Assembly (NCBI GenBank): GCA_044229845.1
Contig: JBGASG010000009.1
Location: 96,001-160,000 of the forward strand
Reading direction: 5' to 3'
From: Candidatus Obscuribacteraceae bacterium
Lineage (GTDB): Bacteria; Cyanobacteriota; Vampirovibrionia; Obscuribacterales; Obscuribacteraceae
DNA: 64,000 nucleotides
Part shown: in pieces, positions 37,271-55,464 of the stretch
Position numbering within the stretch: the stretch's first letter is position 1
Layout: each line of letters opens with the position of its first letter
Notes under the pieces: model-generated
Database searches by the model: none
Seen by the model: the letters and a program-made list of their open reading frames with translations, nothing else
Told to the model about the DNA's origin: nothing
Translations under genes and position numbers: made by a program

Positions 37271-38566
37271 CTACTGGTTGCCACTAAAATTGGTGCCCTC
37301 CGGAGGATGCGGAGGCGGTCCTTGCATACCATCTGGTGGTGGTGGCATATTGCCACCGGGACCACTTGCACCACGGGGCGGACCACCACCGGGCGGACCA
37401 AATCCGCCACCACCGGGTGGACCAAATCCGCCACCACCGGGTGGACCAAATCCGCCACCACCGGGCGGACCGAATCCGCCACCACCGGGCGGACCGAATC
37501 CGCCACCACCGGGCGGACCGAATCCGCCACCGCCGGGCGGACCGAATCCGCCACCGCCGGGCGGACCGAATCCACCCATACCACCGGGTCCACCAGGTCG
37601 CAGGACACCGCGTCCTCGTTTCTCGAAGCTGGTGTCCGGAGTACCCTTGAAACCGCGCGGCACATAAGGATAAGCGGTGGTGATTACGTAATAGTAGGTT
37701 CCTTTCGGATACTCAGCGGTCACCCCGATTCGCCCGTTGCAATCATCGAGATCGCCCAACCCCGCCACGTACTCATAATCTTCAACAAACAATCCATTGA
37801 ACGAGCCGCCCGGGCCACCATTTCTAGTGCCCTTACGGACGCGATAGCTGGGCTTCAACTCCCTCATTTTGGAAGTCGGATCCTTGGCATTGGTGTTGCC
37901 GTAGGGCGCGTAAATCGGATAGCCGTCCGCCGCATACCCGAGCAATACGGGGCGCGGCATGCGCGCCAGATGTTTCAGCAATCCACTGGGTAAGCCATGA
38001 TAGTGGTAGGCCCCATTTGGTTGTACGTGGGCATTGTTTTCGTCCAATCCCAGTCGTGCACCAAGCGCCATTGCTTCGTATTGCCAACCTGAAAATGGAT
38101 TACCCTGCCACCACTCTGCAGCACCAGGATCAAATGGAACTCCATTCAACGCCACGCCAAACAGATTCATACGCAAAGGAGTTGTCGCCGTCGCGAATTG
38201 CGGATTAGCCGGCATGTGAAAACTGTAGTTCTGTTCGCTAATCGTGTTCGGGTTTCCTGGATTTGGAAATGCACCGGTGATGTGATTGGGTATGCCGTTG
38301 GACGTGATAATGCGCAGGTTGCCCTGCACTGACATGTGGACGTTCGGGCTGGCAGCATATGCAGGCGACATGACCCAATCGAGCATCTTGTTCAGATTGA
38401 ACGCATCGCTTTCGTTGCCTGCTTTTTTGTGTTGATGTTTGTGTTTGTGTTTCGACGGTATCGTGGTGCTGTCTTCAACATCGTAATGGGCCTGCGCCGC
38501 CGGCATACCCGCCAACGCAGCCGTCGTTAATCCTGCGACTACAACTATCAAACGGTTCCATTTCAT
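37271..38566 (-). CDS. Secreted YHYH-domain protein with Gly/Pro repeat tail
   Basis: SNGIPNH, GVALNGVPF, NAHVQPNGAYHYH, ADGYPIY, DLDDCNGR. Confidence 0.92.
   Translation of the reverse strand: MKWNRLIVVVAGLTTAALAGMPAAQAHYDVEDSTTIPSKHKHKHQHKKAGNESDAFNLNKMLDWVMSPAYAASPNVHMSVQGNLRIITSNGIPNHITGAFPNPGNPNTISEQNYSFHMPANPQFATATTPLRMNLFGVALNGVPFDPGAAEWWQGNPFSGWQYEAMALGARLGLDENNAHVQPNGAYHYHGLPSGLLKHLARMPRPVLLGYAADGYPIYAPYGNTNAKDPTSKMRELKPSYRVRKGTRNGGPGGSFNGLFVEDYEYVAGLGDLDDCNGRIGVTAEYPKGTYYYVITTAYPYVPRGFKGTPDTSFEKRGRGVLRPGGPGGMGGFGPPGGGGFGPPGGGGFGPPGGGGFGPPGGGGFGPPGGGGFGPPGGGGFGPPGGGGFGPPGGGPPRGASGPGGNMPPPPDGMQGPPPHPPEGTNFSGNQ
37383..37574. repeat. 8 x 24-bp coding tandem repeat (GGFGPPGG)
   Basis: Unit CCACC[A/G]CCGGG[C/T]GGACC[A/G]AATCCG; copies counted directly. 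Confidence 0.95.
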
Positions 38567-38602
38567 CGGTACATGATATCCGATTCTCCAGCGCAATCTT
38601 TG

Positions 38603-39328
38603 CTATTGCGGACCCTCCGTAAGCGAGAGGCGATATTTCGCGTCCAGCGGCTGGTCCGAGAAACGATGAATGTAGCCCGATCCACCCAGACGCGGCGGTC
38701 TGATGCTGGTTTTGTAGTACTTGGCTGCAGATTCCGGCCGCCCCATTGCCTCATAGGCTGCTCCCAGGTAATAGTCGGGTGCGCCGTAGTAATTGGCTGG
38801 CAGTTCTCCCGGCAATGCCGGTGCAAACACGAGCTGTTTGCAGGTCGCCAGATCGCTCAGCGCCGAAGTTGGTCGATCCATTTCCAACAGCAGCTTCCCG
38901 CGTGCCAGATGCGCGTCGCCCGAAAGCGGATTGAGCTGAATCGCGCGATCAAAATCTTGCCGCGCTTTTTCGAAGTTTTTCTGATCCATGTAGCAAATGC
39001 CTCGCTCGGTATAGGCGGCGGCGTATGACGGATCGGTTTCGATCAGTTTCGATAGATCGGCGATAGCACTTGTGGTGCAACCGATCGTGCCGTAGAGATA
39101 ACCGCGTAGATACAAGGCGCGTTTGTGATGGGGAGTGGATTTCAGAATAGCGTTAGTCGATGTGAATACGCTGATCAGCTGGTTTCCAACTTCAGTCTTT
39201 TTCGCAGTTTCTGCCCATGAATTCATGGTCGCTATGTCGGTCGCCGTCTGCTGCGCCTTTGCACCAGTCGTGACTGCAACTAATAAAGCAACGCCGCATA
39301 CTGTTGATCTAAATGTAGTGCTCCTCAT
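38603..39328 (-). CDS. Secreted TPR protein
   Basis: Signal peptide; AYTERGICY..FDRAIQLNP TPR repeats. Confidence 0.85.
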   Translation of the reverse strand: MRSTTFRSTVCGVALLVAVTTGAKAQQTATDIATMNSWAETAKKTEVGNQLISVFTSTNAILKSTPHHKRALYLRGYLYGTIGCTTSAIADLSKLIETDPSYAAAYTERGICYMDQKNFEKARQDFDRAIQLNPLSGDAHLARGKLLLEMDRPTSALSDLATCKQLVFAPALPGELPANYYGAPDYYLGAAYEAMGRPESAAKYYKTSIRPPRLGGSGYIHRFSDQPLDAKYRLSLTEGPQ

Positions 39329-39364: not shown

Positions 39365-39410
39365 CATCCTAGGAAATGGCTGTGTGGTCACTGTGTAAAT
39401 TGTGGAGAGA
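39365..39410 (-). promoter_or_regulatory. Putative response-regulator box plus -10 element
   Basis: TCTCCACAATT ... CCTAGGATG on the minus strand; same 34-nt offset as at 42370..42413. Confidence 0.65.
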
Positions 39411-39453
39411 AAGTGAGGATTGCCGCCAAACTTAACACCGCTAAAATAGAGCG

Positions 39454-42348
39454 ATGGCTCGTCAGGTCTTTATGAACTCTGCAATCCGACGTTTTCGTCC
39501 CACCAAACTGAGCGGGCTGTTTTTGCTGGCGATGCTGGCAGCGCCGGCTGCAGTTGCCGCTCCGCCTGGCTTCGACCAGCACATGCAAAACGCGCTCCAG
39601 GCGATTGCCAAAAAGGACGCCGCCCTGGCTGACAAAGAAGTGGAGGCTGCCGAAAAGGCGCTGGGTCCGACCAAGCCGGCAGACGAGTATTCCCAGCTCT
39701 TGCTGCAACGCGGATTAATTCGTGTAGCCTCTGGTCGACCAAAGGAAGCGGTCCCTTTCTATACGCAGTCTATAAACACCCTCATAAAGGCATTTGGACC
39801 AAAGAGCAGCAAGCTGGGAATTCCGTACGCCATGAGAGGGCTTGCCTACTGCGACAGCGACGGTTACAAGGAAGCCGCCGAAGACCTGGCCAGCTCGTTT
39901 GCCCTGATGCAGCCAGACAAGAGCAACCAGGCGCCGATATATCTGCGCGAGCTGGCAAGTCGGGTGACCCCAATCAGAATAAAACTTGGTGGCGGTCCAT
40001 TAATCATGCCGATGCTGGTCAATGGCATCGCCGCCATGGACCGCTGCGGATTGGGAACCGCCCGAGAAACTGGTTCTCTGATCACGATGCTGGGTGATAC
40101 TTACAAAGCTGAAGGGAAAATCCAGGAGGCTGAAGCGAAGTTTCGCAAAGCGATTGAAATTTTTGCCGCTGCCAAGGCAGACGACGACGAATTAAGTCTG
40201 CGACTGGCCCTTGCCGCCCTCTACGAGGATCAGGGGCGATTCGCCGATGCGGACGAACAGATCAAACCAGCGCTGGCGATTGCTGATCGTGTGTTTGGAG
40301 CTAAAAGCACTCAAGCAGCCAAGGTGCTCGAGCGCCAGGGCATTTTATATTGCAGCTGGGGCAAAGTAACCGAGGGCGAAGCGAAACTAAAGAAAGCACT
40401 GGTGGTGCTTGAAAAAGATCCTAACAACCCTGAGCAGATGTTCTGTTGGATGGGACTGAGCTCGGCCGCGCAGTCTCGCGGCGACCTGGCTGAAGCGGAA
40501 AATGCCATGAAGCAGGCGTTCGCCTTTGCAGAGAAATCGACCAACATTCTTCCTGAAGATGCAAGCACTGTCGATAACGCCATGGCCGATGTGCTGATAG
40601 CGCGCAATAAGTATGTTGAGGCCGAGGCGGTGCTCAACAAGTCGCTGCAAACGGCGCAGAAGGTAGCCGCCGAGAGCCCGCTGGTGGCAGATGCCTATGC
40701 GTCGCTCGCCAAATTGAATTTGTCGCAGGGCAAATACAAGGAAGCCGAAGACTACATCATGAAAGCCCTGATTATGCGGCGCAATCTTTTTGGCGACATC
40801 AATCGTCTGGTGGCGCGAGACTTGCGTCGCGGGGCTTTGATCTATGACGATCAGAAACTGTTTACCAAATCAGCCCCCTGTTATGACCTGTCGCTGCAGA
40901 TTCTCAACAAAGTCGCGCCCGAAAATGATTTCGATAAAATCAGACTCTTAGAATGCTGGGGGCTGAGCGAAAACGCGCAAGCCAAATATTCCGACGCCGA
41001 GAAACGCATGCTGCAAGCCGCTGCAATGGCGGAGGTCGTGTTCGGCAAAGACTCTCGCGAATCGCTTTCTTATGTAGAGCTACTGGGAAAGAACGACTTT
41101 GACGCTGGTAAGTATGAGCAGGCAGAAACTCGCCTGCTGCAAGTGCTGACGAAACTGGAAAAACTTGACGGACCTACTTCTCCGTCGCTGGGCAGCGTGC
41201 TCACTCACCTGTTGCACACCTACAACGAAATGGGCAACGCCACCATGGCGCAGGAGATACAGGCGCGCCTCGACAAGATCAAGGGCGCCCTGCCTGGTGC
41301 ACCGCCGGCGGTGGTGAAAGCCAATCCGGTCATTACTGATGTGGCCGAGATGCCAAAATCCGGCAAGCCTGTGGCAAACAAGTGGGCTGTCGTGATTGGT
41401 ATCAGCAACTTCCGCGACTCCTCAATCAACCTGAAGTATGGAGCAAAAGATGCGAAAGACTTCGCCAATTTTCTGGTCGCTGAGCAAAACTTCAAACCTG
41501 AGAACGTCAAACTGCTGATTGACGAGAATGCCAATCGCATGAACATCGCCGATGCCCTTGGCGAAGGCTTTCTGGTCCGAAACGCGCGGGAAGACGACCT
41601 GGTAGTGATTTTCGTTTCCAGCCATGGTGGCGCCGATATCACCAAGTCGTCAGGAAGAAACTTTTTGTGCTCCTATGAATCAAACGCGCAAAATCTTCTT
41701 ATGACCGGCATCACGATGGAATGGTTCTCCCAGTATCTGACCGACCGCGTTCCGGCTCAGCGCGTGGTTGTCTTCCTTGATGTCTGTCACAGCGGCGCGA
41801 TCACCGGCGACAAAGGATTGACTCGCGAGCAGCAGAGCTTCGATGTTTTGAGCAGTGCACCGGGGCGCGGACAGATCTTTATCGCCTCCAGTTTGTCCAG
41901 CCAGCTTTCGTGGGAGTCGAAGCGCTACGAAAATGGCGTGTTCACGCATTCACTAATGGATGCCCTGCGCGCCAACGGGCGGCAGACAAAGTTGAGCGAA
42001 GCTTTCGACCGGTTGCGTAAGCAAGTCGAAGACGAGGTCCTCTCCGACCGCCAACAAATGCAAACGCCGCTCATGAAGCGAACCTGGAACGGCGATGACC
42101 TACGCCTTTCCGAAGCCTCCGGTACGATGCTCGTCAACACGGGGGCGGCGTCACCATCGGCCCAGCCAGTCATCCCCACGGCCATGCCGGCGTCCAATAC
42201 CGCCGCACCTGTGCCCAATGCCAATCTAATTTTTCAACCCTCCGCGTCCTCTCAGCCAACGGCTGTCCAGGCTCCGGTGCGCCGATTGCCAGCCCGGGCG
42301 CCCGTTCTTAAGGTGCCGCCGGTGCCCGGCAGCCAGGACGATTTCTAA
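39454..42348 (+). CDS. Secreted TPR + caspase-like (peptidase C14) protein
   Basis: Many TPR repeats; KWAVVIGIS, SSHG, LDVCHSG His/Cys dyad, NGVFT, QTP. Confidence 0.88.
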   Translation: MARQVFMNSAIRRFRPTKLSGLFLLAMLAAPAAVAAPPGFDQHMQNALQAIAKKDAALADKEVEAAEKALGPTKPADEYSQLLLQRGLIRVASGRPKEAVPFYTQSINTLIKAFGPKSSKLGIPYAMRGLAYCDSDGYKEAAEDLASSFALMQPDKSNQAPIYLRELASRVTPIRIKLGGGPLIMPMLVNGIAAMDRCGLGTARETGSLITMLGDTYKAEGKIQEAEAKFRKAIEIFAAAKADDDELSLRLALAALYEDQGRFADADEQIKPALAIADRVFGAKSTQAAKVLERQGILYCSWGKVTEGEAKLKKALVVLEKDPNNPEQMFCWMGLSSAAQSRGDLAEAENAMKQAFAFAEKSTNILPEDASTVDNAMADVLIARNKYVEAEAVLNKSLQTAQKVAAESPLVADAYASLAKLNLSQGKYKEAEDYIMKALIMRRNLFGDINRLVARDLRRGALIYDDQKLFTKSAPCYDLSLQILNKVAPENDFDKIRLLECWGLSENAQAKYSDAEKRMLQAAAMAEVVFGKDSRESLSYVELLGKNDFDAGKYEQAETRLLQVLTKLEKLDGPTSPSLGSVLTHLLHTYNEMGNATMAQEIQARLDKIKGALPGAPPAVVKANPVITDVAEMPKSGKPVANKWAVVIGISNFRDSSINLKYGAKDAKDFANFLVAEQNFKPENVKLLIDENANRMNIADALGEGFLVRNAREDDLVVIFVSSHGGADITKSSGRNFLCSYESNAQNLLMTGITMEWFSQYLTDRVPAQRVVVFLDVCHSGAITGDKGLTREQQSFDVLSSAPGRGQIFIASSLSSQLSWESKRYENGVFTHSLMDALRANGRQTKLSEAFDRLRKQVEDEVLSDRQQMQTPLMKRTWNGDDLRLSEASGTMLVNTGAASPSAQPVIPTAMPASNTAAPVPNANLIFQPSASSQPTAVQAPVRRLPARAPVLKVPPVPGSQDDF

Positions 42349-42369
42349 ATTTAAAGCGTCTCCCAAGTT

Positions 42370-42413
42370 TCTCCACATTTTTCATCGTCGCTCCACCAGC
42401 TCTCCCTAGGATG
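42370..42413 (+). promoter_or_regulatory. Putative response-regulator box plus -10 element
   Basis: TCTCCACATTT ... CTCCAC ... CCTAGGATG upstream of the PqqD-like gene. Confidence 0.65.
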
Positions 42414-42453: not shown

Positions 42454-42726
42454 ATGCAGCAAAAAGTAAATGACGTGCTGAGCAGAATAAACGTCGGCGA
42501 GCGGCTGTCCAAGCTGGCTGTCAGTTCGACGGGCTTCGTTTTCGACCCGCAAACCGGACAGAGTTTCACACTGAACCACAGCGGTCTCACCGCCCTTGAT
42601 GCTTTGAAGCGCACCGCGTCCACCGAGTATGCGGCTCGAGCGTTAGCCGATACCTACAAGATTCCGCTGGAGATAGCCGAGACCAGTCTCGACGCGTTTC
42701 TGGTGCAACTGGGGAGATATCTTTAA
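42454..42726 (+). CDS. PqqD family / RRE-fold peptide-binding protein
   Basis: 90 aa; GFVFDPQTGQSFTLNHSG strands followed by three helices ending LDAFLVQL; AGGAG RBS. Confidence 0.85.
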   Translation: MQQKVNDVLSRINVGERLSKLAVSSTGFVFDPQTGQSFTLNHSGLTALDALKRTASTEYAARALADTYKIPLEIAETSLDAFLVQLGRYL

Positions 42727-43845
42727 ATGACGACGACAATCAATATTAATCGCACGTGGAAGCATTTCAATGTAGCCATAACCGGAGTCAATGCCAGAGC
42801 CGACAGTCCCGGTCCGGGGTGCGCAGTTGCCCGCTGTATCAGAGAGCACCGCGCGTTTCGCGGGAGAGTGATCGGTCTGGGCTATGATGTACTCGATGCC
42901 GGACTGTACGCCAGAGATCTCTGCCACGCAGGCTATCTGGTGCCTTACCCCTCCGCCGGGCAGGAAGCATTACTCGAGCGCATCAAAGACATACATGCGC
43001 GCGAGGGTCTCGATGTAATCATTCCCTGTCTGGATGCCGAAATCCAGAACTTCATCGGCATCAGACCGGAACTTACCCGCATGGGCATCCAAATGCTGAT
43101 TCCCAGCCGCGATCAATTTATGCTGCGCGCCAAGGATCATCTTGATGCCTTCTGCAAATCGATCGGAGTGCTCGCTCCCGAGAGTCGCACACTAACAGAT
43201 CCGCAATTCTTCGACACCTGTGAGAGCGATGGATGGCAATATCCCTTGATCATCAAAGGCATCTTTTATGATGCAACGGTGGCATACAGCGCCGTTGACG
43301 CCAAGGCGATCTTCCACCGCATGGTTCATTCCTGGGGCTATCCGGTGCTGGTGCAGAAGATCATTCCCGGCGATGAATTTGACCTGGCTGGCATAGGGGA
43401 TGGTAACGGTGCGCTGATCGGCGCAGTAACGATGCGCAAGCGCGCCCTTACTGAAAAAGGAAAGGCGTGGGCGGGGGTAACTGTTGTAGACGAGGCGATT
43501 GCGGAGGTGGCGGAAAAACTGGTTCGCGCTCTCAGTTGGCGCGGACCGCTGGAAGTAGAAGTGATGAAAGGAGAAGACGGAAAGATATATTTGATAGAGA
43601 TAAATCCGCGTTTTCCTGCCTGGATCTATTTAAGTCATGCTGCTGGAAGAAACCTGCCGGTGGCGCTGCTCAAAGTTCTATCCGGCGACGAAAATCTCGA
43701 ATTGGCAAAACCGAACACCGGCACATTTTTCATCCGCTACGCACAGGAAATTATTGTGCAGCTGCCGGAATTTGAATCGATGTTTGTCGATGGTTTTTCT
43801 GCGCCCGAAAATGACGCGCTGACGGCGACAACCCGATCTGCGTAA
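42727..43845 (+). CDS. ATP-grasp carboxylate-amine ligase (CPSase-like)
   Basis: IIPCLDAE, YPLIIKG, LVQKII, GPLEVE, LIEINPRF; abuts the PqqD stop codon. Confidence 0.9.
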   Translation: MTTTININRTWKHFNVAITGVNARADSPGPGCAVARCIREHRAFRGRVIGLGYDVLDAGLYARDLCHAGYLVPYPSAGQEALLERIKDIHAREGLDVIIPCLDAEIQNFIGIRPELTRMGIQMLIPSRDQFMLRAKDHLDAFCKSIGVLAPESRTLTDPQFFDTCESDGWQYPLIIKGIFYDATVAYSAVDAKAIFHRMVHSWGYPVLVQKIIPGDEFDLAGIGDGNGALIGAVTMRKRALTEKGKAWAGVTVVDEAIAEVAEKLVRALSWRGPLEVEVMKGEDGKIYLIEINPRFPAWIYLSHAAGRNLPVALLKVLSGDENLELAKPNTGTFFIRYAQEIIVQLPEFESMFVDGFSAPENDALTATTRSA

Positions 43846-43907: not shown

Positions 43908-45362
43908 ATGAGTATCGAACCTGTTACCACCACTTGGGAACCGCCGTATATTCAGCCGCACCGCATCGGTGCCGCCAATAAGTTCGGCAACCGCACCGTG
44001 AGAGATGACGTGACGCACAATGTATTTGGACTGCCGATCAATGATTTGATCGAGCGTTTTGGCTCGCCGCTGTTCGTCACTTCAGAACACCAGTTGCGGG
44101 CAAATGTGCGCCGCATCACGCGAGCTTTCGAACGTCGATACAGCCCGGTTGTGCACGGCTGGTCCTACAAGACCAACTATATCAGTGCCATCTGCAACAT
44201 CCTGCATCAGGAGGGCTCGTGGGCCGAGGTGGTCTCGGCTTTCGAGTATGAAAAAGCGAGAGCTCTGGGTATGCCTGGACATCGCATTATTTTCAACGGA
44301 CCAAATAAGGGGCGAGCGATCTTAGAACGTGCCATCGCCGAAGGTGCGCACATTCACATAGATCACATGGACGAGCTAAAACTGATCGAAGCCATCGCCG
44401 AAGAGCAGGATCGCATCGTGCAGGTGGCGCTGAGGCTGAATTTCGATACCGGTTATACGGAGCCGTGGAGCCGCTTTGGCTTTAACGTCGAAAATGGACA
44501 GGCCCATCAGGCCGCTAAGATGATCGCGCTCAGTCCGCATCTGCGACTCAACGGATTGCACAGCCATATCGGCACCTTCGTCCGCGAACCGCGAGCATAC
44601 GCCGAGCAAGTGAGGGTGATGTGCGCGTTCATGCGCGAACTGGAAACCTCGCAGCACATAACTATCGAAAATATCGATATTGGCGGCGGGCTGCCCTCGC
44701 GCAATGCCTTGCAAGGAGTCTATCTTCCTCCCGAACAGGCTATCCCCGACCTCAATGAATACGCCGATGCCATTTGCGATGCACTCGTCGAACGCACCGC
44801 ATATCGCAAAGAATTGAACAAGCCATTGCCGCGTTTGATTTTTGAAAGCGGACGGGCCGTAGTTGATGATGCGCAAGTTTTGATTGCGACAGTCGCCGGC
44901 ACGAAACGACTGCCTGACGGCCGTCGCGCCGCCATACTGAATGCCGGCACCAACTTGATGTTCACCGCCTACTGGTACAACCATCAGATCAAGATAACTC
45001 GCGAACCGACAGGCAGCTACGAAGATACAGTGCTCTACGGACCGTTGTGTATGAATATCGATGTGGTGCGCCACAGCGTCTACCTGCCGCCGCTGAACGC
45101 CGGCGATCACCTGGTAATCAGTCCGGTCGGTGCCTACAACAATACGCAGTGGTTGCAATTCATCGAGTATCGACCAAATGTGGTGCTGGTCCAGGAGGGC
45201 GGTGAGTGTTCCGTCATTCGTCGCGCCGAAAATCTGGAATCGATGATGTCCCACGACGAACTGCCTGAGCGGCTGCGCGACCCATTCGCCAACCTGAGCA
45301 CCAGTGACATGCAGCAGATGCGCACGTGCTCCGACTTGCGCGGCGCCAGAGAAAGAATTTAG
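43908..45362 (+). CDS. Fold-type-III PLP enzyme (diaminopimelate decarboxylase-like)
   Basis: GSPLFV, SYKTN (PLP lysine), FNGP, LHSHIG, DIGGG, ESGR, GPLCMNID, GAY. Confidence 0.9.
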   Translation: MSIEPVTTTWEPPYIQPHRIGAANKFGNRTVRDDVTHNVFGLPINDLIERFGSPLFVTSEHQLRANVRRITRAFERRYSPVVHGWSYKTNYISAICNILHQEGSWAEVVSAFEYEKARALGMPGHRIIFNGPNKGRAILERAIAEGAHIHIDHMDELKLIEAIAEEQDRIVQVALRLNFDTGYTEPWSRFGFNVENGQAHQAAKMIALSPHLRLNGLHSHIGTFVREPRAYAEQVRVMCAFMRELETSQHITIENIDIGGGLPSRNALQGVYLPPEQAIPDLNEYADAICDALVERTAYRKELNKPLPRLIFESGRAVVDDAQVLIATVAGTKRLPDGRRAAILNAGTNLMFTAYWYNHQIKITREPTGSYEDTVLYGPLCMNIDVVRHSVYLPPLNAGDHLVISPVGAYNNTQWLQFIEYRPNVVLVQEGGECSVIRRAENLESMMSHDELPERLRDPFANLSTSDMQQMRTCSDLRGARERI

Positions 45363-45378: not shown

Positions 45379-47526
45379 ATGTTAAACCGGTTACTCGAAG
45401 GGTATGGTTCGTTTTTTGCACTCAACCATCCCGCCTCAAAATTTTTGATCTTCATTGCCGCTATGCTGCAGCCGCTCTCTGGGCTATTCGGTCTGGTCGG
45501 AGGCTTGAGTGTGATACTGGCCCGCAAGCTGCTCAACTTCCAATCCGAGACAGAACGAATTGAGACTGTCAACGGCATTCTTCTGGGCATGTTGATTGGT
45601 TCACTGTACGCGCCTGACTATCGCACCGTGCTTCTCACCATGTGTGGTGGCGCCCTGGTGGTTTTGACCAGCGCCATTCTGACCGAAACCCTGGCCCGCC
45701 AGTATCGGCTGCCATTGCTAGGACTTCCCTATGGGCTCGCCGCATACATTCTCTTGCCGGTGGCCGCTAACCTGCGACTCGATCCAGCCATGCCGGCATA
45801 CACATACTCTCTGCCCATGCTGCCGATTCAGGCCTTTCTCTGGCTGTATCCCATGGGCGCTATGTATTTCAACGGCACCACAATCGGGGGACTCCTGGTG
45901 CTCACCGCATTCGCTATATCTTCTCGGTATCTTGCCATCATCGCCGTCGGCAGTTCGATTCTCTGCTGCGCGTTCCTTGAGATATTGGCCGTGCCGTCCA
46001 ATACGACACTATTTATGGTGGCACAAATGAACGGTGTCCTCAGCGCTTGCATTATCGGTGGGCTGTGTGCAACGCCCGGCAAACGCAGCCTGCTGGTAGC
46101 AGTATCAGCAGCTGCGTGCGCCTGTGTCCTTTCTTTGTGCCTGTCGCGGTTGCTCTGGGTTTTCGGGCTGCCGGTATTGGCGCTGCCGTTTGTGATTTCA
46201 ACCTACGCCTGTATGCTTTCGCTCAACCCCGGTCGTGGGAAAGCGTGGACTTATTTCTGGTTGCCCGCGCCGGCGCTGCCTGAACGCAGCATGGAGCAGA
46301 TAGAAACGGCCAAGGCTCGCGGTGTCGATGTGCGGAGCATAGCTCTGAAACCGCCGTTCGACGGTGAGTGGCAAATCTACCAGGGCTTCGGCGGCAAACA
46401 CACGCACACCGGCAACTGGCAGTATGCCCTCGATTTCTTTCAGACTCAGGAAGAACGCAGCTTCTGGACAGATGGACGCCTGCTTTGCGATTACTATGCA
46501 TTCGGCAAACCGGTACTGGCACCAGCGTATGGCACCGTCATCGATTGCCGCAACGACTTACCTGATAATCCACCAGGCGAGGTCGATGCCGTCAACAACT
46601 GGGGCAACTTCATCTTGATTCAGTTGGATTTTGGTCCATGTGTACTGCTCGCTCACCTGCAGAAAAGTTCTCTCAAAGTAGCACCGTACGCCCGCGTACA
46701 TCCCGGACAGGTAATTGCATCGGTCGGCAACTCCGGCCGGTCGCCGCAGCCCCACTTGCATGTGCATGTGCAGGAGACGGCAATTATTGGAAGCAAAACA
46801 CTGCCATTTCATCTGACGTCGGTGACGACCGTTGCCAGTGACGCACCAACCGACACGCGAAATACATTCAGTTTGCGTGCTTGCCCTAAAGAAGGCGATA
46901 CGATTGCAACGCCGCGCCGGAATCCCGCAATTAAGCGTGCTTTGCGACTGATCGTCGGAACCCAGTTTCAATTTGAAGTGGCGCAGGCAAACGCCCCGAC
47001 CGCCGTGTCGCGCCTCGAGGTCAAGCTGGACATCTATGGACAGTTCTGGCTCGAGAGCGCGACAGGCGCCAGGGTGGCTTTTGTTTGCAACGATGATTTC
47101 GTTGCCTTTTACAACCGTACTGGTCCCAAAGACATGCTTCTGGACGCATTGATCCTCAATATCGGATTGACTCCTTTTTGCGAAGGCGGTCTGGAGTGGA
47201 CCGATGTGGCATCGCGGCGCTTACTGCCCATGAATAGTTTCACCCGACTGGCACACGCCCTCTGGCATCCTTTGAAAGCCTGCGCTCTGGGCAAATTTCA
47301 ACGCACTTGGGATCCTCTGACGCAGCTCTGGCATCAAACCTGCGAATACAGTTTAGGAGGCGACAAGTGGCGCACTCATGCGAAACTATGCGAGGCGAAC
47401 GGACTCGTTTGCGTCTCGCTGTTCAAAAAGGGAGCACCGTTGCTTACAGCAAGATTGATCGGTTACGGCATTCGCGAAGACTATGGAATTCCGGAGCAGC
47501 AAACATCTCTGTTGGCAGCCGTCTGA
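45379..47526 (+). CDS. Urea-transporter-like membrane domain fused to M23 metallopeptidase
   Basis: About 10 TM segments with NG..LP..LP[YF] repeats; HTGNWQYALDF, WGNFI, LAHL, GNSGRSPQPHLH. Confidence 0.85.
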   Translation: MLNRLLEGYGSFFALNHPASKFLIFIAAMLQPLSGLFGLVGGLSVILARKLLNFQSETERIETVNGILLGMLIGSLYAPDYRTVLLTMCGGALVVLTSAILTETLARQYRLPLLGLPYGLAAYILLPVAANLRLDPAMPAYTYSLPMLPIQAFLWLYPMGAMYFNGTTIGGLLVLTAFAISSRYLAIIAVGSSILCCAFLEILAVPSNTTLFMVAQMNGVLSACIIGGLCATPGKRSLLVAVSAAACACVLSLCLSRLLWVFGLPVLALPFVISTYACMLSLNPGRGKAWTYFWLPAPALPERSMEQIETAKARGVDVRSIALKPPFDGEWQIYQGFGGKHTHTGNWQYALDFFQTQEERSFWTDGRLLCDYYAFGKPVLAPAYGTVIDCRNDLPDNPPGEVDAVNNWGNFILIQLDFGPCVLLAHLQKSSLKVAPYARVHPGQVIASVGNSGRSPQPHLHVHVQETAIIGSKTLPFHLTSVTTVASDAPTDTRNTFSLRACPKEGDTIATPRRNPAIKRALRLIVGTQFQFEVAQANAPTAVSRLEVKLDIYGQFWLESATGARVAFVCNDDFVAFYNRTGPKDMLLDALILNIGLTPFCEGGLEWTDVASRRLLPMNSFTRLAHALWHPLKACALGKFQRTWDPLTQLWHQTCEYSLGGDKWRTHAKLCEANGLVCVSLFKKGAPLLTARLIGYGIREDYGIPEQQTSLLAAV

Positions 47527-47546: not shown

Positions 47547-49079
47547 ATGAAGCTCAATATCGCGCACAAGTTGATGATGATTATGATGCTGACCACCGGA
47601 ATTGTGGTCGGGCTGATCTTCGGATTGACGCGCTTCAGCATCCTCAGCGGCTTCACCAACTATGTTGAGCGCGTTGAACTGTCGACTCTCAGCACCTTTG
47701 CCGGCAATCTTGCCCGCCGGTATGAGCGAGGAGGCAACAGCTGGGATTTTGCACGAAACGACGAGTCGCAAATCTGGTGGATACTGGGCGCCAGCGAGAT
47801 GAGCGATCTGCATCACAATGTTCCGCCACCGCCGGGGGAGCTACCAAACCCTCATCCCCCGCCTGGCAGCGGTCCGCCGCTCGAGGCACCGGGCGGCGGA
47901 CCACCCTTCTTGCAATTTTTGGGTGCGCCGCCGGGCACCAAACCCGGCACCATGCCACCATCGTTTCCTGAACATCGAATGGCTTTCTTTCGCCGCATTG
48001 GTCTTTTCGACCAGAGCGGCAAAATAGTCTGGGGCAACCTGGCCTCCAGAAACAGCAAACAGATGCTGGCCCTGACCGCCGGCGGCAAACAGATCGGGTA
48101 CCTGAAACTGGTGCCTAACGATTTGATGTCTAAAGATATCGAGGGACAGTTCATTGCCGAGCAGAGCCGCAACCTGTTGATCGTCAGCGCCGTGGCGTTT
48201 CTTGCCGCAGTTGGAGCTGCATTTTTGCTCTCTCACGATCTGGTGCGAGCCATAAACACTCTCGTGCAGGGTACCCGCAAACTGTCGACCGGCAATTTCG
48301 AGACCCGCATTTCACTCAATCGCGGCGACGAACTCGGTGAGCTTGCCGAAGACTTCAACAGCCTGGCCAACACGCTGCAGCAGCAGGACACTGCCAAGAA
48401 ACAGTGGATCACCGACACGTCGCATGAACTGCGCACTCCGATCGCTATATTGCGCGCGCAGGTGGAAGCGTTTCAAGATGGTGTGCAACAAGTAAATCCT
48501 CGCACCCTGGAAATATTGCACAGCGAAATCATCACGCTGGGAAAACTGGTTGATGATCTGCATGACCTGGCGCGCTCTGATCTCGGACAGCTGCGTTATG
48601 ATTTCGTGCCGGTCGATGTAGGGGTGGTTTTGCTGGATACGGTGGAAGCTTTCAATGAACGTTTCGCCAGCAAGAAGATCAAGCTGGATGCCAGTGCCGT
48701 CGCCGACTTGCATTGCATCGTGGAAGCGGATAGCACGCGGCTGACACAGGTGTTTTCCAATCTATTGGAGAACTCGCTACGATACACAAATGAAAACGGC
48801 GGTGTTAAGATCTCGTCCATGCAATTGCCGGGCGAGTTGGCTATCTATTTCGACGATTCTGAACCCGGTGTGTCGGCGCAGTCAATCTCACAGATTTTCG
48901 ATCGGTTCTATCGCAGCGAAAGTTCACGCAATCGCAAGCATGGTGGTGCCGGGTTGGGGCTGCCGATCTGCAAAGCTGTCATTGAAGCGCATCATGGTAC
49001 CCTGACCTCGACCCGCTCTCAAATGGGCGGTCTGCGCATCACTATCCGCCTGCCGTTGAAGGAGCTGTCCAAATGGTAG
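47547..49079 (+). CDS. Sensor histidine kinase (BaeS-like, HAMP domain)
   Basis: Two TM segments, DELGELA, SHELRTP, NLLENSLRYT, FDRFYR, GAGLGL. Confidence 0.93.
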   Translation: MKLNIAHKLMMIMMLTTGIVVGLIFGLTRFSILSGFTNYVERVELSTLSTFAGNLARRYERGGNSWDFARNDESQIWWILGASEMSDLHHNVPPPPGELPNPHPPPGSGPPLEAPGGGPPFLQFLGAPPGTKPGTMPPSFPEHRMAFFRRIGLFDQSGKIVWGNLASRNSKQMLALTAGGKQIGYLKLVPNDLMSKDIEGQFIAEQSRNLLIVSAVAFLAAVGAAFLLSHDLVRAINTLVQGTRKLSTGNFETRISLNRGDELGELAEDFNSLANTLQQQDTAKKQWITDTSHELRTPIAILRAQVEAFQDGVQQVNPRTLEILHSEIITLGKLVDDLHDLARSDLGQLRYDFVPVDVGVVLLDTVEAFNERFASKKIKLDASAVADLHCIVEADSTRLTQVFSNLLENSLRYTNENGGVKISSMQLPGELAIYFDDSEPGVSAQSISQIFDRFYRSESSRNRKHGGAGLGLPICKAVIEAHHGTLTSTRSQMGGLRITIRLPLKELSKW

Positions 49080-49780
49080 AAAACGGCGGCAGCAGCTATA
49101 TCTTGATTGTCGAAGACGAGCTGGTGATTGCCGGGATTCTGGCTGATTACTTGAAACAATCAGGTTTCCGCACCAAACATGTGGACAACGGCATCGATGC
49201 CGTCGATGCCGTCAAGAAAGAAGCGCCGGATCTGGTCCTATTAGATGTAATGCTGCCCGGAAAAGACGGACTGGAAGTCTGCCGTGAGATTCGTACTTTC
49301 TCGACTGTGCCTGTGATTATGGTAACCGCCAAAGTTGATGAGATCGACAAACTGCTAGGGCTGGAGCTCGGTGCCGATGATTACATCTGCAAGCCCTTCA
49401 GCCCGCGCGAAGTGGTGGCACGAGTGAAGGCTTCTTTTCGGCGCGCCAAGTACGCAGCCACCACCGACACCGGCAAGCGCCAGCTGATCGAGATAGATGA
49501 GCCGCGCGCGCGAATCACGGTAAGTGGGCACCGGCTCGACCTGACTCCCACAGAATATCGGCTTCTGAAACTGCTCGCCAGCAACCCGGGGAGAGTCTAC
49601 TCTCGCGCACAACTTCTTGATCTTTGCTACCAGCAAGAGCAACAAATATTCGATCGGGTAATCGACAGCCACGTTAAGAACGTGCGGCGCAAGCTGGCAA
49701 AGGTGCTGTCAGGACAGGACGTCATTCATGCTGTGTACGGTGTCGGCTATCGCTTCGAAATCGATAGCGGTCAGTCCTGA
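49073..49780 (+). CDS. OmpR-family response regulator (BaeR-like)
   Basis: VEDE, LDVMLPG, GADDYICKPFSPRE, RVIDSHVKNVRRK, VYGVGYRF. Confidence 0.93.
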   Translation: MVENGGSSYILIVEDELVIAGILADYLKQSGFRTKHVDNGIDAVDAVKKEAPDLVLLDVMLPGKDGLEVCREIRTFSTVPVIMVTAKVDEIDKLLGLELGADDYICKPFSPREVVARVKASFRRAKYAATTDTGKRQLIEIDEPRARITVSGHRLDLTPTEYRLLKLLASNPGRVYSRAQLLDLCYQQEQQIFDRVIDSHVKNVRRKLAKVLSGQDVIHAVYGVGYRFEIDSGQS

Positions 49781-54400: not shown

Positions 54401-55222
54401 TCATTTTGCCGGTGGTGTCGGCTCCAGCAATTTGGCATCCACCAGAATTCTTTCCGTAATGTCCCGGGCGCGACGTCCCCAGGCATTGTCTTTGCTCTTG
54501 ATATTGGTGGCAAACACATAGGGATGTCCATCGTGCACGACGTAGCCGACAAACCAGCCGAGCACTCGCTTGCCGTCTTTTGCATCGGTGCCGGTCTTGC
54601 CGGCGAACACCGTATCTGGTGTCTCCTTCAGTTTGATCAATGTCTTGACTGTGTCCTGCGACGAAGTTGAAAATGGCAGCTTGTCGAAATAGAGCTTTTT
54701 GAGAAACTCCACCTGCTCGTCCGCTGAAATCTTCAATGAAGAATCAAGCCAGAATGTGGTCAGTCCTCCCGATAAATCGCGATTGCCGTAGTCAACGTCG
54801 TCGATGTACTTTTGCATGCGCGGCATACCGACGTCACGGGCCACGTTTTGAAAATACCAGACGACCGAATCAGTGACGGCAGATTGCAATGTCTGGTCTT
54901 TGTTCCAATTGTCCATGGGGCGTCGTTTGCCGTCCCACTTCATCTTATGATCGGCGCCGGTCAGTACTCCCGAGTCCAAACCGGCCAGTGAGTTGAATAT
55001 CTTGAAAGTAGAACAGGGCGAAATCTGCTCGGCACAACGCTTCTTGTTGTAGCGAATGGTGTGTCCTGATTCCAGGTCTACAAATACAAAAGCACCGTCG
55101 TAACCGGTGAAGTATTTCGGCAGACTCTCAGTCTTTACCGATGTCTCTGTTTCTAAGTCTTTAGCATAAGATGGAGACGTCAATACAAGGGCAGCGACAA
55201 GCGGTAACAGCTGTTTCATCAT
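54401..55222 (-). CDS. Class D beta-lactamase (OXA/BlaR-like)
   Basis: PCSTFKI, SVV, YGN, FWLDSSLKIS, KTG, GWFVG. Confidence 0.92.
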   Translation of the reverse strand: MMKQLLPLVAALVLTSPSYAKDLETETSVKTESLPKYFTGYDGAFVFVDLESGHTIRYNKKRCAEQISPCSTFKIFNSLAGLDSGVLTGADHKMKWDGKRRPMDNWNKDQTLQSAVTDSVVWYFQNVARDVGMPRMQKYIDDVDYGNRDLSGGLTTFWLDSSLKISADEQVEFLKKLYFDKLPFSTSSQDTVKTLIKLKETPDTVFAGKTGTDAKDGKRVLGWFVGYVVHDGHPYVFATNIKSKDNAWGRRARDITERILVDAKLLEPTPPAK

Positions 55223-55409: not shown

Positions 55410-55464
55410 ATGTTAGCGGCAAGCTGTGAATCGGGTGTGTAGAAAGTGTGGAGTTTGTGTGGAG
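55410..55464 (-). promoter_or_regulatory. Four 11-bp-period direct repeats plus putative -10 element
   Basis: CTCCACACAAA CTCCACACTTT CTACACACCCG ATTCACA ... TAACAT on the minus strand. Confidence 0.55.

Follow-up and report, generated by a model that had tools for sequence, protein, structure and literature searches.

BaeSR of Escherichia coli and Salmonella is an envelope-stress two-component system whose targets comprise mdtABCD-baeSR, spy, acrD and ycaC. The enterobacterial system is described as answering indole, copper, zinc, iron and tungstate (PMC3160322), as having few targets (PMC2731931, PMC7657598) and as open to the addition of a new one (PMC13059784), while BaeR is assigned the consensus TCTNCANAA and the 18-bp TTTTTCTCCATDATTGGC with its TTGGC tail (quoted in PMC3799227). 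The pho box of PhoB is described as 11-bp direct repeats that end 10 bp upstream of the −10 element, in place of a −35 (PMC1906773). Here we analysed a 64,000-nt stretch of DNA (hereafter the window) from a Candidatus Obscuribacteraceae bacterium (contig JBGASG010000009.1, positions 96,001 to 160,000, forward strand). In it, an operon running from a PqqD-like gene to a BaeR-like regulator gene, and an oppositely oriented unit encoding a TPR protein and a YHYH-domain protein, share a promoter box of four phased repeats. The box recurs with the same geometry before the same genes in related genomes and co-occurs with the regulator gene; from sequence comparison, the BaeR-like regulator encoded next to it very likely binds the box and would thereby switch on both the operon and the TPR-YHYH unit. 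What emerges is a real, well-conserved BaeR-type regulon with unusual targets, the switch itself being of a known kind.

Each box consists of four CTCCAY-type repeats spaced 11-9-11, followed by 10 bp and the −10 element TAGGAT. The elements at the two window promoters and the putative binder are:

42360..42412, plus strand: operon box with its promoter, 41 nt before the ATG
42360-65 (CTCCCA), 42371-76 (CTCCAC), 42380-85 (TTTCAT) and 42391-96 (CTCCAC), plus strand: repeats of the operon box
42407-12, plus strand: −10 TAGGAT of the operon promoter, after a 10-bp spacer behind repeat 4
39366..39418, minus strand: TPR-YHYH box with its promoter, 37 nt before the ATG
39418-13 (CCTCAC), 39407-02 (CTCCAC), 39398-93 (TTACAC) and 39387-82 (CCACAC), minus strand: repeats of the TPR-YHYH box
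39371-66, minus strand: −10 TAGGAT of the TPR-YHYH promoter, after a 10-bp spacer behind repeat 4
49073..49780, plus strand: BaeR-like OmpR-family response regulator, the putative binder of the box

A first-pass annotation of the DNA had placed CTCCACA at 42371 and CCTAGGATG at 42405 on the plus strand, and the same pair at 39407 and 39373 on the minus strand; these positions are correct, as is the common offset of 34 nt. The period of about 10 bp that it gave the inner repeats is wrong: the four hexamers lie at −11, 0, +9 and +20, with the −10 at +36. In this genus the first repeat is degenerate at both sites. The CCTAGG palindrome was rejected as a functional element, CC being present in just 13 of 47 family sites; TAnnAT is conserved.

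Neither site is explained by background frequency. At up to two mismatches the motif matches the window twice, whereas 100 dinucleotide shuffles averaged 0.01 matches and never contained two or more, and a scan of the whole 5.16-Mb genome at this tolerance returned the same two sites and no others. When scored with a matrix made from ten sites of relatives, all outside this genus, the operon site ranked first in the genome (54.3 bits) and the TPR-YHYH site second (33.3 bits); the third-best among 10.3 million positions reached only 13.7 bits. The two sites lie 3 kb apart in opposite orientation and have an exact CCTAGGATG in common, which could reflect chance or a recent local duplication without function. 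We regard the probability of this as negligible. They are identical at 33 of 54 bases. Among 6000 randomly drawn pairs of 150-nt upstream regions, 2 reach this level in their best 54-nt window; 77% of pairs of family sites reach it, and the median of such pairs is 35. Since the identity lies below this median, the sites are not recent copies of each other. Moreover, the identity is found only in the repeat cores and the −10, the parts that relatives keep, and the box is found in 13 genera.

We surveyed 104 genomes of the family (G, C and L numbers below denote genomes, contigs and loci). Upstream regions of relatives show the four CTCCAY-type hexamers at −11, 0, +9 and +20, the 10-bp spacer and the −10; one relative is 95-100% identical in protein along the whole locus. 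The strict pattern occurs in 27 of the 104 genomes (reversed-pattern control: 0), that is, in 26 of the 45 with the BaeR-like regulator and 1 of the 59 without it. The lone exception, G017, has an operon cut off inside the channel gene and no kinase match. An 11-11-11 form brings 17 further genomes, two of them without a regulator match: G063, an assembly of 970 contigs with the operon at a contig end and a kinase fragment elsewhere, and G102, whose channel gene stops ~200 bp short of the contig end. With both forms pooled, the box is present in 41 of 45 regulator-positive genomes and upstream of 41 of 43 PqqD/ATP-grasp/decarboxylase/urea-transporter-M23 operons. The two exceptions are the operons of G070, where the contig begins 90 bp before the TPR gene, and of G027, whose copy is divergent and has no BaeSR. 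Four regulator-positive genomes gave no box match: G070, G023, G072 and the fragmented G076.

All fetched loci together yielded 63 distinct sites before pqqD, TPR, YHYH or an unannotated beta-rich gene, of which 47 are spaced 11-9-11 and 16 are spaced 11-11-11. In all 63, scored with a 3-bit penalty on other spacings, 10 bp separate the last repeat from the −10, and the most frequent −10 is TAGGAT (28 sites). This comparative evidence supports the earlier proposal of TAGGAT as the −10 box of a BaeR-type phased site, and likewise its connection to the regulator at 49073, which the box tracks across the family.

With respect to the regulator, NF007982 (BaeR) is its best match among 103 families, PhoB reaching 223 bits; it is 52% identical to E. 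coli BaeR and matches PDB 4b09 at E 1.9e-71. Its recognition helix, DRVIDSHVKNVRRKL, shares 12 of 15 residues with that of E. coli BaeR (DRTIDSHIKNLRRKL), is conserved in 47 distinct family sequences and occurs in none of the genome's 22 other OmpR-type hits. On the DNA side, the half-site agrees with TCTNCANAA at 9/9 and 8/9 positions at the two window sites, and with TTTTTCTCCATDATTGGC at 14/18 and 12/18, counted by hand. Applied to E. coli, a family half-site matrix finds CTCCAY sites at spy, acrD and mdtA, and in spy and acrD the stretch it picks is the one matching the BaeR consensus. As in BaeSR, the kinase-regulator pair ends the operon it apparently controls, the regulon is very small, the recognition helix is near-identical and a TCTCCAY half-site stands upstream of the targets, the pair's own operon included. 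Unlike those of BaeSR, the targets here are a biosynthetic-looking operon, a TPR gene and a YHYH gene, not efflux pumps (mdt, acrD) or Spy. The four phased repeats without a TTGGC tail, the scores of both proteins under curated cut-offs and a kinase loop ranging from 2 to 254 residues across the family set the system apart as well.

About ten further promoters of the genome carry four 11-bp-phased CCAC repeats, 10 bp and TAnnnT (reversed control: 0). This second class precedes PLD-HTH genes, large low-complexity proteins and some stretches without a clear open reading frame (ORF); its sites in this genome (G000), together with one in the window, are:

C1:440834, C1:454310, C1:776148 and C1:778615, minus strand: second-class promoters
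C6:67756, C6:117337 and C8:74745, plus strand: second-class promoters
C18:197029 and C21:26359, minus strand: second-class promoters
C19:119468 and C22:185581, plus strand: second-class promoters
55410-55464 of the window, minus strand: second-class site with CTCCAC, CTCCAC, CTACAC, ATTCAC, 10 bp and TAACAT

Given these promoters, and similar sites in three genomes that gave no regulator match (G091, G031 and G113), another OmpR- or SARP-type regulator, such as that of the phased CTCCACAC promoters, could bind the boxes, the BaeR-like gene next to them being incidental. We consider this very unlikely, as the operon and TPR boxes track the regulator in 26 of 27 strict-pattern genomes and the BaeR helix is unique to it, whereas the other class precedes unrelated genes and has AC after the first repeat at 7 of its 7 best sites, versus 0 of 63 operon, TPR and YHYH sites. 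We take the second class as a separate regulon; that it represents an expanded BaeR-like regulon seems doubtful. With some ten such promoters in the genome, a second regulator of similar specificity probably exists. The window site is kept in G001 and is followed, after ~190 nt, by a gene resembling those of class D beta-lactamases (54401-55222; Pfam Transpeptidase); as a conserved target this gene was rejected, no box being present at 5 of 5 relative loci. From the promoter at G000 C6:117337-117480 (plus strand; L205), transcription would run into the terminator hairpin of an opposing gene ~70 nt away that appears KH-domain-like by eye, and a small RNA is possible there.

The two window promoters resemble those of PhoB in their phased direct repeats, the 10 bp to a TAnnnT −10 and the missing −35; the promoter listing gives no −35 at either, with ATCGTC and ACAGTG at that position. 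They differ from PhoB promoters in the half-site, in a dimer offset of 20 bp (11-9-11) rather than 22 bp at 47 of 63 sites, and in a regulator that scores higher as BaeR (296 bits) than as PhoB. On this geometry and on homology, from which all steps of the mechanism are drawn, the kinase would phosphorylate the regulator, which would then bind as two head-to-tail dimers, one on repeats 1-2 and one on repeats 3-4. The downstream dimer would cover the place of the missing −35 and recruit sigma-70 polymerase as PhoB does, and transcription would start a few bases past TAGGAT. The operon would thus be autoregulated, with the kinase and regulator genes raised along with the TPR-YHYH unit. Repeats 3 and 4 lie where polymerase would sit, so that the regulator might instead bind and repress by covering the −35/spacer region; with no −35 to block, and with the fixed 10-bp phasing being that of PhoB activation, we give repression hardly any credence. 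RNA contigs from three runs contained a few 150-300 nt pieces, none reaching either box.

Several points weigh against activation of both units by the BaeR-like regulator. The matrix and the search patterns were seeded by a regular expression from the window sites and lean towards this geometry, the spacer count carries the penalty given above, and the related genomes are not independent, so that kinship enters the counts. G023, G072 and G076 have the regulator yet no box match, and the second-class promoters show that a similar layout occurs elsewhere in the genome. Both proteins miss the curated cut-offs, the regulator with 296 versus 380 bits for BaeR (NF007982) and the kinase with 406.5 versus 500 (NF012163) and 375 versus 603 bits (NF007837) for BaeS. 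The TTGGC tail of the BaeR consensus is missing at the window sites, and the E. coli spy, acrD and mdtA promoters do not have the full four-repeat layout (scores 10.8, 1.0 and −1.9). Finally, the product chemistry and the signal considered below are read from family resemblance only.

Between and behind the two promoters lie three genes:

38603..39328, minus strand: TPR protein of 241 aa (Pfam TPR_1) with an N-terminus that is signal-peptide-like by eye
37271..38596, minus strand: YHYH-domain protein (PF14240, E 2.6e-68), starting at TTG 38596 or ATG 38566
39454..42348, plus strand: TPR-caspase-like gene (Peptidase_C14), between the two promoters

The most likely start of the TPR gene is ATG 39328 behind AGGAGG, since the GTG 39391 of the longer ORF falls inside the box. 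TPR orthologues are present in 40 of 104 genomes (46 genes), and the box stands upstream of 45 of the 46, the miss being G070; this count includes two genes placed by coordinates only (G093:C227 and G098:C78) and two fusions behind a beta-rich domain. TPR opens the operon in 19 of the 40 genomes and stands behind a box of its own in the others, often on another contig (boxed genes on other contigs: G020, G093, G094, G096-G100 and G017). It was not found in G023, G072, G116, G117 and G120, where the operon was not found either (the decarboxylase was searched for in four of them). These five keep kinase and regulator without the operon; TPR, not found in them, therefore belongs with the operon, and the comparison supports the protein as a core member of the regulon and a putative dedicated partner of the operon. 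A single-sequence fold of low confidence (pLDDT 55) was not used.

The TPR-caspase-like gene is probably an insertion, as it has its own sigma-70-like promoter (TTGCCG-16-TAAAAT, 39420-39447) and does not adjoin the operon outside this genus. Read-through from it may give basal operon expression. On the opposite strand, the TPR box directly adjoins the promoter of this gene with its first repeat (39413-39447).

The YHYH gene begins 6 bp after the TPR stop and is probably co-transcribed with TPR in this genome. Its product has a signal-peptide-like (by eye), His-rich N-terminus; the tail is Gly/Pro-rich, with tandem GGFGPPGG repeats (37271-37670, minus strand). YHYH is present in 47 of 104 genomes and lies behind the box in 7 of the 47: by way of TPR in G000, G001, G115, G119, G121 and G122, and directly in G120; G117 has a boxed fragment. 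Boxed YHYH genes outside this genus fall in one other genus only, and the TPR-YHYH junction of G122 is split between contigs and bridged by the metagenome locus L074. No full box was found ~1.1-1.5 kb upstream of 32 unlinked YHYH loci, 12 of them in operon genomes, with 8 more loci outside the box scan; the best of these loci is in G004, with a half box of 14.7 bits ~75 nt before the YHYH ORF. The earlier claim that both proteins are part of the same system therefore stands for TPR, boxed in 45 of 46 cases and first in the operon in 19 of 40 genomes, and is weaker for YHYH. Among the relatives, many operon genomes have no YHYH match, and many YHYH genomes have no such system.

Could YHYH nonetheless be a working part of the pathway, for example a secreted zinc hydrolase or metal binder that acts on the product or the cell wall? 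The domain is predicted to bind zinc and is possibly a hydrolase, according to PMC7824862 and 10.64898/2026.10.18.759936. Besides its position 6 bp behind TPR here, the half box in G004 and the box directly before YHYH in G120 and before the fragment in G117, the order box-TPR-YHYH appears again in G115, G119, G121 and G122 with a different TPR subfamily, hinting at repeated recruitment. A quick tree rejected one clade for the TPR partners of YHYH in the two genera (approximately unbiased (AU) test, p 0.0001), but a quick YHYH tree is compatible with one or two origins of boxed YHYH (AU p 0.51), and the operon and TPR were not found in G120 and G117, which keep box-YHYH. Together with the few boxed and many unboxed loci, this makes a working role in the pathway rather unlikely. 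In view of the 32 unboxed loci, of YHYH without the system and of boxes without the operon in G120 and G117, YHYH looks like a co-regulated accessory, a target that recurs but is optional, acquired in certain lineages; as a core member it is not supported.

FslC/FigC is the N-citrylornithine decarboxylase of rhizoferrin synthesis, and BtrJ/BtrK/BtrI act in butirosin synthesis. The operon ahead of the regulator gene consists of:

42454..42726, plus strand: PqqD-like (RRE-type) small protein of 90 aa (PF05402)
42727..43845, plus strand: ATP-grasp ligase of 372 aa (PF15632, PF02655)
43908..45362, plus strand: fold-III pyridoxal-phosphate (PLP) decarboxylase, with N-citrylornithine decarboxylase 7kh2 as closest solved relative (E 6e-55)
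45379..47526, plus strand: urea-transporter-fold membrane domain fused to an M23 peptidase domain
47547..49079, plus strand: BaeS-like histidine kinase, whose periplasmic loop is long and Pro-rich

Successive genes from pqqD onwards are separated by 0, 62, 16 and 20 bp, and the kinase and regulator genes overlap by 7 bp. The ligase is present in 43 of 104 genomes and had no match in the plasmid collection. The decarboxylase has the specificity loop CMNID in 20 of 20 sequences, as compared to CMQHD in FslC and CESSD in diaminopimelate (DAP) decarboxylase. It scores below the cut-offs for LysA (TIGR01048; 219.6 versus 297.9), with no acidic residue after the active-site Cys, and for FslC (NF041039; 222.9 versus 500), and also matches BtrK (E 3e-21). 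Being closest to N-citrylornithine decarboxylase and without the acidic specificity residue of LysA, its sequence suggests a ligated conjugate as the substrate. The fusion protein is predicted to fold into a urea-transporter domain and an M23 domain (pLDDT 94.8), the latter with the invariant zinc ligands H342, D351, H458 and H460 (numbered from 45382); the operon is widespread, with 648 homologues of this fusion among 8000 scored candidates, including Gammaproteobacteria and Magnetococcales.

Like the FslC/FigC and BtrJ/BtrK/BtrI systems, the operon sets a fold-III PLP decarboxylase beside an amide ligase, and like FslC, but unlike DAP decarboxylase, its enzyme has CM at the specificity position. 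Unlike in the FslC pathway, the ligase is of the ATP-grasp type and not an NRPS-independent siderophore (NIS) synthetase, and the FslC cut-off is missed; unlike in either pathway, the small protein is PqqD-like, not an acyl carrier, and a urea-transporter/M23 fusion is present. Tentatively, and somewhat short of probable, the operon may make a small amide-linked amine that is passed across the membrane under envelope or metal stress. Taken jointly and with the same reserve, the steps would be as follows: as with BaeSR, envelope or metal stress provides the signal; the ATP-grasp enzyme ligates an acid to a diamino acid; the FslC-like enzyme decarboxylates the conjugate; and the product passes through the channel of urea-transporter fold and is trimmed or released by the M23 domain.

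NF012163 and NF007837 (BaeS) are the kinase's best two of 80 families. Its periplasmic loop varies from 2 to 254 residues across the family, the long forms being Pro-rich (loci L226-L258): it measures 2-51 residues in 21 of 36 kinases, is long in 11 and unresolved in 4. That the loop was lost along with the operon was rejected, the short loops being found in 21 of 36 genomes having the channel gene upstream. The kinase gene follows the channel gene in 38 of 45 genomes, with 2 more at contig edges; five genomes (G023, G072, G116, G117 and G120) keep kinase and regulator without the operon upstream. Bce-type kinases are described as sensing through a partner transporter (PMC8534201). The family resembles Bce modules in the 21 of 36 kinases almost without a periplasmic loop and in the gene order just given; it differs in its candidate partner, which has the urea-transporter fold and does not belong to the ABC transporters, in the long loop of the window kinase and in the five genomes with no channel gene upstream of the kinase. 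One may imagine that the kinase senses via the urea-transporter/M23 fusion and that these two, together with the ligase, the decarboxylase and the secreted TPR protein, make up a defence pathway of a kind not yet described, directed at envelope or metal stress, which monitors and induces itself and recruited YHYH zinc proteins more than once. We hold this to be distinctly unlikely, and the same five genomes count against co-sensing through the channel. The G095 kinase is without an ATP-binding domain.

We found no published account of a PqqD/ATP-grasp/decarboxylase/urea-transporter/M23 operon in a search outside which most subscription papers and supplements lay, and no earlier link of it to a BaeSR-like pair; the top results held no relevant paper on the BaeR footprint or start sites, or on the two-component systems of this clade. 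The box probably ties this operon, whose purpose is obscure, to a regulator as well as to a partner for which secretion is predicted. Used as a reporter, box and regulator would allow a screen for inducers that points to the purpose of the operon; for metabolomics, the pathway could be turned on with a constitutively active form of the regulator. The box may also serve as a barcode for pathway members, with TPR as the core and the beta-rich family and YHYH as accessories.

The beta-rich proteins form an unannotated family behind the same box in several relatives, with no Pfam match and no homologue found in this genome at E 1e-12. G034 and G127 have the domain as a fusion with the TPR protein; the loci of the family are:

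L012:8323-9477, L021:1964-3445 and L022:13597-13992: beta-rich genes
L130, L132 and L133: further beta-rich loci

At L022 (G017:C27), a single junction truncates both the channel-M23 gene and a convergent gene that has a box; kinase and regulator were not found and three boxes are left, pointing to a deletion or a mis-assembly. The divergent operon of G027:C7 (L025) has a ligase 44% identical and two different TPR genes in front, and neither a BaeS/BaeR match nor a box was found in that genome. Extra boxes occur in single genomes at L131 (G097:C135), L128, L129 and L134. The one at L131 precedes a 65-aa ORF ending in CxxxPGIW and then an in-frame 258-aa ORF, possibly a single read-through gene.

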